A stretch of 64,000 bases of DNA from a virus. The first letter of the stretch is position 1. Each line of letters begins with the position of its first letter. Made by a program: the position numbers and the translations under genes. The notes beneath the pieces are model-generated. The model was not told where the DNA came from. It saw nothing but the letters and a program-made list of their open reading frames with translations, and did no database searches. Where the stretch lies: positions 33,238-97,237 of IMG/VR virus record IMGVR_UViG_3300007535_000003, one strand, 5' to 3'. Below, in pieces: positions 6,721 through 9,519 of this stretch.

Positions 6721-7341
6721 ATGAAAAAAAACTTTAACAAAGAAATAGACATACTTAGACAGCTTCTCATATATAAGGAAAACTGTCAGTACGAAATGAG
6801 CTTAAGACAGCCGATAGGTGACGGACCTATGGCGCTTGTAAGTAGAGCCAGGTATGTTACAGGGTATATGTCTACAAGGTGGTTTGATCTATTTGACATA
6901 TACAAAGAGTTACAACTAACAGTTGGTTGGAATTTAAGTGATTTATTAAGTAAAAGCATAATTGACTTAGGATGTGGAACAGGATTACTTGTAGACTTAT
7001 TCAGCATAATATTTAAGAAAACTTATGGAATAGAAGCTGATTGGAATCTTTGTAAGATAGCTACAATAATGAGGCCTCATCTAGAAATATACAATGGATA
7101 TGTACAGGAAAGAGTAGACTTAATACTCAGGTTAGATCCTGACATTATTTATGCTTTTAATATCACAGGTGAACCAAGAGAAACATTTGATGAGTTATTC
7201 AGGAAGATGCGCAAGGGACAAGTATTTGTACATCTAGGGGGCTCAACAGAGATAGAAGAGTTAATAGATGAACACAAGTTTAATACATCTAACAAAGAGG
7301 AAGATAGGCAATCAGCCAGAGTACTGATAGCTATTAAATAA
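6721..7341 (+). CDS. class I SAM-dependent methyltransferase
   Basis: IIDLGCGTG motif I followed by YGIE. Confidence 0.8.
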   Translation: MKKNFNKEIDILRQLLIYKENCQYEMSLRQPIGDGPMALVSRARYVTGYMSTRWFDLFDIYKELQLTVGWNLSDLLSKSIIDLGCGTGLLVDLFSIIFKKTYGIEADWNLCKIATIMRPHLEIYNGYVQERVDLILRLDPDIIYAFNITGEPRETFDELFRKMRKGQVFVHLGGSTEIEELIDEHKFNTSNKEEDRQSARVLIAIK

Positions 7342-7359
7342 AACCACAAAATTAAAAAT

Positions 7360-7488
7360 ATGGATTGGGAACAATCAAGAGACGAAGATAGAGAATTTGA
7401 TCCTAATGATGGACAAGATATCTACGGATGCATACTAGGAGCAATTATGTGGATAGCACTAATAGCACTAGCGATTTTCTGTAGATAA
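7360..7488 (+). CDS. 42-aa acidic, C-terminal-TM microprotein
   Basis: MDWEQSRDEDREFDPNDGQDIYGCILGAIMWIALIALAIFCR*, motif-led. Confidence 0.55.
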   Translation: MDWEQSRDEDREFDPNDGQDIYGCILGAIMWIALIALAIFCR

Positions 7489-7608
7489 ACCACAAAAATG
7501 AAATTGTTAAAAATATAGAGAGATCTTGGAGCCCAATCAGGGCTATCGGCGACGACACGGTGGTAACCAGCCCATACAGCAGTCGTACTTCAGGTCTCCC
7601 TAACTTAT

Positions 7609-7728
7609 GGTCCGTTCGTCTAGTGGTAGGACGCCGAGCTGTTAATACTTTATACATGCACTAGCTATGTTAGAGTATCAACCATGGTTTGCCCCACGGA
7701 AACGGAGGTTCGACTCCTCCACGGACTG
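7609..7728 (+). ncRNA. tRNA-like RNA with an expanded anticodon arm
   Basis: Acceptor GGTCCGT/ACGGACT, D-arm GTCT-AGTGGT-AGGAC, T-arm GGAGG-TTCGACT-CCTCC; about 50 extra nt in the anticodon arm. Confidence 0.75.
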
Positions 7729-7733
7729 CTGTT

Positions 7734-7926
7734 AGCCATATAGCTCAAAAGTGTTACACTCAAGTTCCTAGGAATCGGCTGTAACCCCCAAGGATATGCA
7801 GAGGAGAATGGAACTTATTTGGACTTAAAATCCAATCCATTCTAGGCCACCTCACGCAGAGTCCGAGTAGCGGAAGAGCCCCTAATAAATTATAGGGAGA
7901 TCTGGGTTCGAGTCCCAGTATGGCTA
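7734..7926 (+). ncRNA. tRNA-like RNA with a ~120-nt insert in the D-loop
   Basis: Acceptor AGCCATA/TATGGCT, D-stem GCTC/GAGC, CCCTA/TAGGG arm, T-arm CTGGG-TTCGAGT-CCCAG. Confidence 0.75.
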
Positions 7927-7961
7927 CTATTTTTATTTACAAACCACAAAAATTAAATATT

Positions 7962-8129
7962 ATGTCAGCATTAATTGCATTCCTTGTAACAATGGCATTC
8001 CTAAGTTTAATGGGCTATGCCTTATTACCTTACGGGACTAAGGAGGAAGCCTCAACGAGAAAAGTAGTAGGTATTGTAGCAATTTTAGCTACAGTAGTAA
8101 TACTAATATTAACTTTAATAATATCCTAA
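7962..8129 (+). CDS. two-TM small membrane protein
   Basis: MSALIAFLV... start follows the AACCACAAA motif; two hydrophobic helices. Confidence 0.65.
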   Translation: MSALIAFLVTMAFLSLMGYALLPYGTKEEASTRKVVGIVAILATVVILILTLIIS

Positions 8130-8132
8130 AGT

Positions 8133-8390
8133 ATGGAAAAACGTTATGCCCTTAACAGGGGAGACATCTTAGTCTTACTGTTAAATGGGAAGAAAAAGAC
8201 ATTTAGGGTCTTATCCTCAAAAGATAGCATGGGAAAAGACGCCGACAGTAGTAATAAGAAAGAGCCTTTGGATCTCAATATAAGTAGCGAGCTATTCAAA
8301 GAGATCGAAAAGAAACTGCCTGAAGTATTTTTTAAGAAAATCCGATGGAAATCTAACTCAGTAAGATTATTAAGCGTTAAAAGGAGCTAA
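8133..8390 (+). CDS. hypothetical protein
   Basis: 85-aa ORF in operon. Confidence 0.6.
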   Translation: MEKRYALNRGDILVLLLNGKKKTFRVLSSKDSMGKDADSSNKKEPLDLNISSELFKEIEKKLPEVFFKKIRWKSNSVRLLSVKRS

Positions 8391-8393
8391 GAC

Positions 8394-8837
8394 ATGTGGA
8401 AATCTAACTCAAAGCAAAGCAAAGACAAAATAAGTAAGGGCAGTTTAGTAATTATTGACATGCCCGACTTTATTGGAGAATATGTACCTTCAATAAGTAA
8501 GGTAGCGTGTAGCTACAAAGAAAAGATGCTACATTTCTCTAATGTTAGCAATGCTTTTGGTAGCTTATTTGGTGAAGAACACCATTTAATAGAAGTACCA
8601 AGAGCAGTCATACTCTATAACAAGACACATTTTCTTAAGAGTGTATTAGAGCTATCTGAAGCATATAAAGAAGATAGCTTAGATTCTTTATTCTTTTACG
8701 GTCGTAAAATAGTACTACCAGTCCATGAGGGATACTTAATGCCGGTAAGTAAAATAAAGGATCCACACAAAAGAGGACTATGTTATAGAGAATGGGAAAT
8801 GTTAAAGACTAAGGGATATAGTAACCTTATAACCTAA
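8394..8837 (+). CDS. hypothetical protein
   Basis: 147-aa ORF in operon. Confidence 0.65.
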   Translation: MWKSNSKQSKDKISKGSLVIIDMPDFIGEYVPSISKVACSYKEKMLHFSNVSNAFGSLFGEEHHLIEVPRAVILYNKTHFLKSVLELSEAYKEDSLDSLFFYGRKIVLPVHEGYLMPVSKIKDPHKRGLCYREWEMLKTKGYSNLIT

Positions 8838-8898
8838 CTTAACTAACAAACGATTTACTTACGCTGCTAGCTAGGGCTTTAGCGGACTCGGGTTCGAT

Positions 8899-9519
8899 CA
8901 AAAGGTCGAAGTTAAACTGGGTGAATTCAGGGAAACCTAAGTCACAATGATAAGGCAACCCTGAGCCAAGCCCTTAAGAGGGAAGGTGCAGAGACTACCT
9001 GAATACAGGCTAGAGCGCCCAGCACTTAAAAGTGAAGAGATAGTCCGATACTCCTGAGAAATTAGGAGAAGAAGCGAGATGTAAATTCTTGACGTTTTGA
9101 TAAGGTTTCTTTTGTATATTTACCATTACGAGGTGTTATACTCTTCAATTCGTTAAGTATCATATCTATACGTCTACGCTTCTTGGGATGTCTGGAATTT
9201 ATGTAAGATAGTACGTTTATACATTTAGGTAAATAAGTATACCTCAGCTCATAATTAGTAAAATCACCTGATTTTTTAGTACAAATGAATCCATTATGAC
9301 CTGTTTCAAGTTTAATAAATTTTTCTATTTCCACAAGTAGGTCATATTCGTTATTACTAAAAGAAATAACAGGTGATCTTTCGCAATTCTTATGTAAACG
9401 TAAAAATGTTATCGTGCCGTCAGCATCAAAGAAACCTGTAATATATTCCCAACCCATATTTTTATTGAATATACGGACGCAGGTTTGAAATGTTACTGTT
9501 CCAGATGTTTTAACTATTG
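8899..9519 (+). mobile_element. group I intron in the tmRNA T-loop
   Basis: P1 with U.G at the splice site (TTCGAT/GTCGAA); P GAATTCAGGGAAAC 8923; Q AACCCTGAGCCAAG 8957; R GTGCAGAGACTA 8986; S AAGAGATAGTCC 9035; P3 CTGGGTG/CGCCCAG; extra P7.1 hairpin (IA-like); terminal G9519. Confidence 0.92.
9062..9457 (-). CDS. single-motif LAGLIDADG homing endonuclease, antisense within the intron
   Basis: N-terminal YITGFFDADGTI motif, 131 aa, located in the P9 region of the intron. Confidence 0.9.
   Translation of the reverse strand: MGWEYITGFFDADGTITFLRLHKNCERSPVISFSNNEYDLLVEIEKFIKLETGHNGFICTKKSGDFTNYELRYTYLPKCINVLSYINSRHPKKRRRIDMILNELKSITPRNGKYTKETLSKRQEFTSRFFS

Follow-up and report, generated by a model that had tools for sequence, protein, structure and literature searches.

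A transfer RNA (tRNA)-like gene was analyzed at positions 7734-7926 (plus strand) of a 64,000-nucleotide (nt) stretch of phage DNA, hereafter the window, which corresponds to bases 33238-97237 of the 97,237-nt IMG/VR virus record IMGVR_UViG_3300007535_000003 (CheckV completeness estimate 94%). The element is a genuine tRNA-like gene, well defined and unusual in its make-up. What is new here is the combination of an insert in the D-loop, a disabled native anticodon loop and a complete tRNA-Leu(UAA) anticodon stem-loop carried on a rod. Tentatively, we read the element as the gene of a non-decoding RNA in which a tRNA scaffold mimics the anticodon arm of tRNA-Leu(UAA); this is the reading we favor, and it is put forward as a possible one. 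The virus was placed as a distant crAss-like phage because its DNA polymerase is ~30% identical to polymerases of crAss-like phages of Bacteroides, and its host phylum is likely Bacteroidota.

The tRNA body, its insert and the displayed anticodon arm

The body was delimited by cmscan alignment and by direct reading, and consists of the following parts.

7734-7750, plus strand: 5′ part of the tRNA body (cmscan alignment; pair probabilities 0.96 for the acceptor and 0.62 for the D-stem)
7734-7740, plus strand: acceptor strand AGCCAUA, pairing with UAUGGCU at 7919-7925 (7/7 Watson-Crick)
7741-7742, plus strand: U8 and A9
7743-7746, plus strand: 5′ strand of the D-stem, GCUC, with its partner GAGC at 7876-7879 (4 base pairs, bp)
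7747-7750, plus strand: D-loop remnant AAAA
7872-7875, plus strand: D-loop remnant GGAA (G18 G19), followed at 7876-7879 by the 3′ strand of the D-stem, GAGC (cmscan, direct reading)
7880-7897, plus strand: native anticodon hairpin, C, CCCUA / UAGGG (direct reading; pair probability 0.98)
7885-7892, plus strand: 8-nt loop of the native anticodon hairpin, AUAAAUUA (direct reading)
7898-7901, plus strand: variable loop AGAU (cmscan)
7902-7918, plus strand: T-arm CUGGG-UUCGAGU-CCCAG (cmscan; T-stem pair probability 0.90)
7919-7925, plus strand: 3′ strand of the acceptor, UAUGGCU, followed by discriminator A at 7926; no CCA is encoded

The remnants AAAA and GGAA of the D-loop provide A14, A15, G18, G19 and A21, and the core tRNA features U8, A14, G18 G19, the U54-U55-C56 loop and the A15/U48 pair are kept. 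The Rfam tRNA model (RF00005) aligned to 7734-7926 end to end and with every arm, at 30.4 bits against a gathering threshold of 29; this score was obtained in a local 701-nt search (E 2.6e-4) and passes the threshold only marginally. In the whole-genome search, the element scored 24.9 bits, and it went unreported in the whole-window run at the gathering threshold. ARAGORN called no tRNA at the element under default settings and, with introns allowed, returned only an implausible solution. The intact acceptor, D-stem and T-arm at 7734-7926 had been proposed in an earlier reading made from the letters and their open reading frames (ORFs), here called the sequence-only reading; cmscan and direct reading confirmed them, positions included.

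Judged by its letters, the element's own anticodon hairpin cannot decode. Its loop AUAAAUUA, which the sequence-only reading had already described as a non-functional-looking 8-mer, has no U33-NNN-purine37 register and is not a canonical 7-nt anticodon loop, and deletion of the insert in silico still leaves the same 8-nt loop without a U33/R37 layout. The hairpin directly abuts the D-stem, with no nucleotide at position 26, and the segment from position 26 to 48 falls 1 nt short of its canonical length.

Following exclusion of the anticodon arm, the body was compared with 470 distinct tRNAs and found to be closest to the 76-nt class-I tRNA(UAA) of two uncultured phages, L106 and L092 (score 32, runner-up 24). 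The sequence suggests that the whole gene may have descended from phage Leu(UAA)-type tRNA genes. In these phage class-I tRNA(UAA) genes (74-76 nt), the T-arm is identical and the acceptor similar to those of the element; unlike the element, they carry the UAA arm at its normal position and have no insert. Class-I-sized tRNA(UAA) genes of 74-76 nt without a long variable arm were seen in many uncultured phages (IMG/VR loci L067-L109), and a similar 73-nt tRNA(CAA) is present in G002, a relative whose polymerase is 52-53% identical to that of this phage.

All sequencing runs containing the phage are soil metagenomes. A contig from a second soil run spans 7243-7991 with zero differences, and contigs of two more runs partly cover the stretch and are identical; the layout thus did not arise in assembly. 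Four soil DNA runs were checked, three of which contain parts of the stretch without difference, while the fourth (X5) has no contig there. With a G+C content of 46%, the element lies in the top 1.7% of the 193-nt segments of the genome.

The insert in the D-loop, put at about 120 nt by the sequence-only reading, was resolved into two structures.

7751-7871, plus strand: structured insert of ~121 nt, placed between positions 17 and 18 in the D-loop's variable pocket
7753-7785, plus strand: hairpin A, GUUACA / UGUAAC around the palindrome UUCCUAGGAA (outer-stem pair probability 0.88)
7792-7864, plus strand: rod B, five stacked helices with 24 bp and a single G-U pair (helix probabilities 0.76-0.98)
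7819-7835, plus strand: tip of rod B, UUGGA-CUUAAAA-UCCAA (every loop base unpaired, probability 0.93-1.0)

In the cmscan alignment, the insert appears as a 126-nt D-loop insertion; it emerges where the D-loop is exposed to solvent. It is as G+C-rich as the body (~47.5% over 7751-7872, versus 34.8% for the genome). The helices of rod B are free of mismatches inside and are separated by four asymmetric internal loops, and the stability of the rod exceeds that of its shuffles (z -3.17; 2 of 300 shuffles were equally stable). Its tip is stacked, as had been noticed earlier, on AGAAUGGA / UCCAUUCU (7805-7812 / 7836-7843). The energy of hairpin A is no different from that of shuffles (z -0.9). The letters CUGUAAC, formerly taken for a Tyr-type loop, are indeed present at 7779-7785; they are paired inside hairpin A and form no loop, and the likeness is best taken as chance.

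The 17-mer at the rod tip is the exact anticodon stem-loop of genuine tRNA-Leu(UAA) genes, so that the central observation of the sequence-only reading held. Of 301 Bacteroidota genomes drawn evenly from the phylum, 61 contained it and none contained a reversed control pattern, and all nine loci that were checked are class II tRNA-Leu(UAA) genes of 85-87 nt. The phage genome contains it in single copy. Generic anticodon-like hairpins, defined as a 5-bp stem with a 7-nt Y-U-NNN-R-N loop and counted on both strands, are not enriched in the phage genome (94, versus 80.5 +/- 9.9 in dinucleotide shuffles), and by our own arithmetic a given 17-mer would turn up exactly, by chance, in 97 kb with a probability of ~1e-5.

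Outside this arm, likeness to tRNA-Leu fades. A covariance model (R1) built from eleven Bacteroidota tRNA-Leu(UAA) genes matched the element only at 7819-7835 (local match, 13.9 bits), and alignments of the flanks to tRNA-Leu were no better than those of shuffles (left p 0.68, right p 0.14). Compared with Bacteroidota tRNA-Leu(UAA), the element thus shares the 17-nt anticodon stem-loop and matches nowhere else; it has no properly placed long variable arm, and its Leu-type arm does not stand at the anticodon position. As far as sequence can tell, the arm is the only part that is demonstrably tRNA-Leu. A perfect 17-nt arm between flanks without tRNA-Leu likeness fits selective retention or copying better than uniform decay. 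From its sequence, the arm looks to have been kept for a reason, either retained in a diverged copy of tRNA-Leu or built or copied onto the rod.

Known systems, relatives and a possible role

Phage tRNA-like stable RNAs have been known since the work on T4 and T5 of the 1970s-80s. Most likely, the element belongs to the same architectural class (which is not a homology family), as a phage gene with a tRNA frame, an insert and no usable anticodon loop. RNA1 and RNA2 of T5 are annotated as 'tRNA-like stable RNA with unknown functions' (AY543070, 30501-30644 and 32959-33083). Like the element, they are phage genes situated among tRNA genes, and combine a frame of acceptor and T-arm with an extra structured insert in the place of a normal anticodon loop. 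RNA1 has a Leu frame and keeps CUUAAAA beside an insert of ~40 nt; the element shares CUUAAAA. No sequence homology between the T5 RNAs and the element was found by blastn of the phage collection. RNA1 has a class II frame with the insert in its anticodon loop, whereas the element has a class I frame with the insert in its D-loop and, unlike RNA1, presents its Leu arm closed and intact, as a stem-loop carried by a rod. RNA1 and RNA2 bear the annotation of stable RNAs, whereas the element is known as DNA sequence.

Two further likenesses can be drawn. In phage RNA decoys such as RNA anti-CRISPRs, a copy of a host RNA feature occupies a host protein, and in the engineered 'tRNA scaffold' a tRNA body protects an inserted RNA, the anticodon arm rather than the D-loop being replaced. 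The element shares the logic of both decoy and scaffold, with its insert in the D-loop.

If the element is a non-decoding mimic, its RNA would be transcribed together with two neighboring structured RNAs from an early-gene leader at ~7487. Given the intact body, host RNase P would be expected to cleave at 7734, and 3′ trimming and CCA addition would follow after A7926; the tRNA body would presumably make the RNA stable. The displayed arm could then occupy a protein that recognizes the anticodon loop of tRNA-Leu(UAA), namely an anticodon nuclease or an anticodon-loop modification enzyme. By itself, this decoy step is improbable in our estimate. Equally doubtful is its fuller version as an anti-defence decoy, in which a nuclease-resistant tRNA scaffold would bait a host anticodon nuclease or other anticodon-loop reader and so spare the real tRNA-Leu(UAA), with the neighboring gene, which carries an Asn-type loop, as part of the same toolkit.

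Several observations speak for the mimic. UUA makes up 41% of the Leu codons of the phage, which therefore has an interest in the tRNA-Leu(UAA) of its host. The high G+C content favors function, since sequence under no selection in an A+T-rich phage should tend toward A+T. Support also comes from the adjacency, at 5 nt, of another altered tRNA-like gene and from a rod-bearing tRNA-like gene in the relative G002. The element's sole exact match to a real tRNA is the free-standing anticodon stem-loop of one defined tRNA, which suggests a specific partner, a protein reading the anticodon loop of tRNA-Leu(UAA). Among tRNA-targeting defences, LshCas13a has tRNA-Leu among its four most-cut tRNAs (PMC11042736), and bacterial Schlafen-type nucleases cleave anticodon arms (PMC12330615); both precedents make the decoy step plausible. 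The sequence-only reading had offered a decoy for host anticodon nucleases or tRNA-modifying enzymes. The part of this proposal that concerns mimicry gained partial support from a letter-perfect arm, a loop predicted to be open and flanks unlike tRNA-Leu, and the decoy role is one that we infer.

Relatives of the element were sought in several collections. In IMG/VR, an exact or degenerate pattern around the rod tip gave 0 matches. A pattern of D-arm, long gap and T-arm gave 15 matches, mostly two adjacent tRNA genes and none resembling the element, and a pattern of the Leu arm with a T-loop 55-85 nt later gave 43, all of them normal tRNA-Leu(UAA) genes, many with another tRNA gene next to them. 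A 20-mer matched 26 times in JGI metagenomes, at 20 normal class II tRNA-Leu(UAA) genes and at six sites without a tRNA call, and none of these is element-like; in GTDB genomes, the 20-mer gave two matches of near-identical sequence, of which the one checked (L136) lies inside a coding sequence. Searches of 7400-8000 by blastn and nhmmer against five related phage records returned nothing, and blastn against the phage collection returned only short matches under the neighboring intron. Literature searches turned up no account of a crAss-like phage tRNA mimic that has its insert in the D-loop. With no homolog in IMG/VR, JGI metagenomes, the phage collection or the five related records, the element is a singleton.

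Other altered tRNA-like genes were encountered in the course of these searches. The relative G002 has an 88-nt tRNA-like gene (L030 1501-1588; G002:C1:12043-12130) in which a long hairpin or rod with a 5-nt loop takes the place of the anticodon loop, which indicates that altered tRNA-like genes recur in this phage group. For this gene, ARAGORN gave a doubtful call of 'tRNA-Stop(tta) with 17-nt intron'; G002 also has normal tRNAs. At six IMG/VR loci (L052, L056, L057, L059, L061 and L065), a common tRNA-like gene was seen in which a ~45-nt hairpin replaces the anticodon region, and a normal tRNA gene comes after it.

A number of points weigh against the mimic. The searches returned no homolog in any of the four collections, and the sequencing runs on record for the stretch include no run of RNA type. 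The secondary structure is a prediction: the folding energy of the whole element differs from that of shuffles (z -2.55), the insert alone reaches only z -1.55, and the D-stem has a rival partner in GAGU at 7865-7868 (probability 0.25, versus 0.62 for the assigned partner). Without any selection, a perfect arm could also have arisen if a tRNA-Leu gene had recently converted a short patch of the sequence. As to the proposed role, a stoichiometric decoy would not easily stop a nuclease of high turnover. Bacterial LeuRS does not read the anticodon, and the arm is therefore not an obvious charging signal.

If the mimic reading is true, the element would add an RNA to the means by which phages counter defences that attack tRNAs, for example anticodon nucleases, Cas13 and Schlafen-type enzymes. 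Phage counters to such defences known so far are replacement tRNAs and repair enzymes. Under the mimic reading, annotators would also be warned that a class of phage genes escapes tRNA finders.

Alternative explanations

A recombination scar or chimeric pseudogene, in which fused or duplicated pieces of tRNA-Leu(UAA) and of another tRNA gene have no function and await deletion, is unlikely. In its favor, the element is a singleton without relatives, it combines two non-canonical features (the D-loop insert and the 8-nt loop), and turnover is rapid in the early region of these phages. Since the body is nearest to phage class-I tRNA(UAA), all pieces could derive from Leu(UAA) genes. When the outer 5′ strand was excluded, the generic tRNA model gave a second alignment, of 24.9 bits and thus below threshold, in which 7792-7835 is read as acceptor strand, D-arm and Leu arm, i.e. 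as the 5′ half of a tRNA. Collinear with it, the 8-mer at 7862-7869 equals the 3′ strand of the acceptor plus A73 of some Bacteroidota tRNA-Leu. Alignment and 8-mer give a faint hint of the relic of nested tRNAs that the sequence-only reading had considered, and the shuffle tests of the flanks reported above were not significant. Decay would be expected to be even, yet the 17-nt arm is perfect and its flanks have no detectable likeness to tRNA-Leu. Moreover, the acceptor, T-arm, D-stem and 24 rod pairs contain zero mismatches, the G+C content is 46% in a genome of 35%, phage genomes are compact and the stretch lies within a run of structured RNAs, all of which argue against a scar. If the element is a scar after all, it still documents the rapid reworking of tRNA genes in the early regions of crAss-like phages.

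A processing signal only ('t-element') would keep a tRNA body so that the early transcript is cut between genes by RNase P and by 3′ processing, the insert being a tolerated passenger and the Leu tip without a role. The acceptor and T-arm are the determinants for RNase P; both are intact here, and the element has a small ORF upstream of it and, on its other side, the next leader motif with its ORF. This explanation is nevertheless improbable. A processing signal has no need of a G+C-rich insert of 121 nt, nor of an intact D-stem, G18 G19 and an exact copy of an anticodon arm, and two tRNA-like units in tandem would be redundant for one cut.

Even less credit can be given to a real decoder, either matured into tRNA-Leu(UAA) by a novel intron or by refolding, or reading quadruplets by way of its 8-nt loop; we regard this as very improbable. 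A need for such a tRNA can be argued, as UUA accounts for so large a share of the Leu codons and a tRNA search of the whole record found no canonical tRNA-Leu(UAA) gene in the phage genome. The neighboring gene would become a normal tRNA-Asn(GUU) on removal of 49 nt at position 37/38. A precedent is found in the Lak megaphages of Prevotella, phages of Bacteroidota whose tRNA genes contain short, non-group-I 'enigmatic introns', one insert being predicted to hold a tRNA (Devoto et al., 10.1101/356790). The Lak inserts were placed by a eukaryote-mode tRNA scan and their removal gives a typed tRNA, whereas removal of the D-loop insert of the element leaves the 8-nt loop without U33/R37 layout and hence no usable anticodon loop; the Lak precedent offers no mechanism to rescue this gene. 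By geometric inference, the Leu arm on its 24-bp rod is too distant from the acceptor end to serve in decoding.

No convincing bulge-helix-bulge was found at the borders of the insert, the scan giving scattered matches and none at 7750/7872. The group I core (RF00028) had no match in 7400-8100 at E values up to 10, and no small-ribozyme match was obtained in the same interval; a group I intron would need far more than the 121 nt of the insert, and the one that the window contains is located elsewhere (8774-9068). RtcB, splicing endonuclease and Rnl2-type ligase are lacking in the phage (PF01974, PF01139 and PF09414 were not found). Bacteria generally have no such splicing endonuclease, and in the controls PF01974 was found only in archaea.

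Further candidates were rejected: a transfer-messenger RNA (tmRNA), whose G3-U70 is replaced by C-G at the third acceptor pair and for which there was neither an ARAGORN call nor an Rfam match; a Y-RNA-like RNA; a small peptide gene in the insert; and a small ribozyme, no ribozyme family matching in 7400-8100.

Neighboring RNAs and phage genome

Three structured units, all of them G+C-rich, form a cluster in which the element comes last. Its neighbors and the accompanying signals are the following.

7487-7497, plus strand: leader motif AAACCACAAAA, shortly before the three-RNA cluster (direct reading, repeat D1)
7516-7602, plus strand: element X, the first unit of the cluster, G+C 55%, a three-way fold closed by a long stem
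7609-7728, plus strand: tRNA-like gene with a Glu-type body and the Asn-type loop CUGUUAA (Rfam tRNA, 44.6 bits)
7927-7940, plus strand: T-rich trailer after the discriminator of the element (direct reading)

A second copy of the leader motif AAACCACAAAA is found at 7941-7951, before the next ORF. The motif may be an early-gene promoter or start signal. Directly after the 7487 copy, a six-codon mini-ORF (MKLLKI, 7498-7518) extends into element X and could be a remnant or a leader peptide. The fold of element X is not significant alone (z -1.3), and element X has no match in Rfam. The 5′ strand of its closing stem repeats 20 nt (85%) of 7887-7906, within the tRNA-like element.

The tRNA-like gene at 7609-7728 is separated from the element by a spacer of 5 nt and carries a 49-nt hairpin insert at position 37/38. 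With introns allowed, ARAGORN typed it as tRNA-Asn(gtt) i(37,49), and excision of the 49 nt would yield a tRNA-Asn(GUU) whose anticodon stem holds a single A-A mismatch. Over 27 nt, the 5′ part of the gene shares 89% identity with the tRNA-Glu(UUC) of G002, to which the Glu-type body is homologous. The T-rich trailer at 7927-7940 is possibly the transcript end of the RNA cluster, to judge from its letters; a consensus terminator scan gave no terminator there.

The early region of this phage group shows fast turnover. The closest relative, G001, is a fragment that begins downstream of the region of the RNA cluster, and the proteins adjoining the cluster are orphans. The ORF directly upstream of it (6721-7341) gave a sub-threshold match to a SAM methyltransferase (PF13489, 21.4 bits versus 27) and had no relative among 5.8 billion proteins. 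The window contains genes for a DNA polymerase of family A, a primase, a DnaB-type helicase and a giant protein of 7,427 amino acids, the last of these in one uninterrupted ORF at 36258-58541 (minus strand). Outside the window, at 8355-8371 of the genome (G000:C1), a palindromic hairpin, UAGCU-CUGUUAA-AGCUA, has the letters of the Asn-type loop of the gene at 7609-7728; this likeness is probably due to chance, and the hairpin may lie within a coding region.

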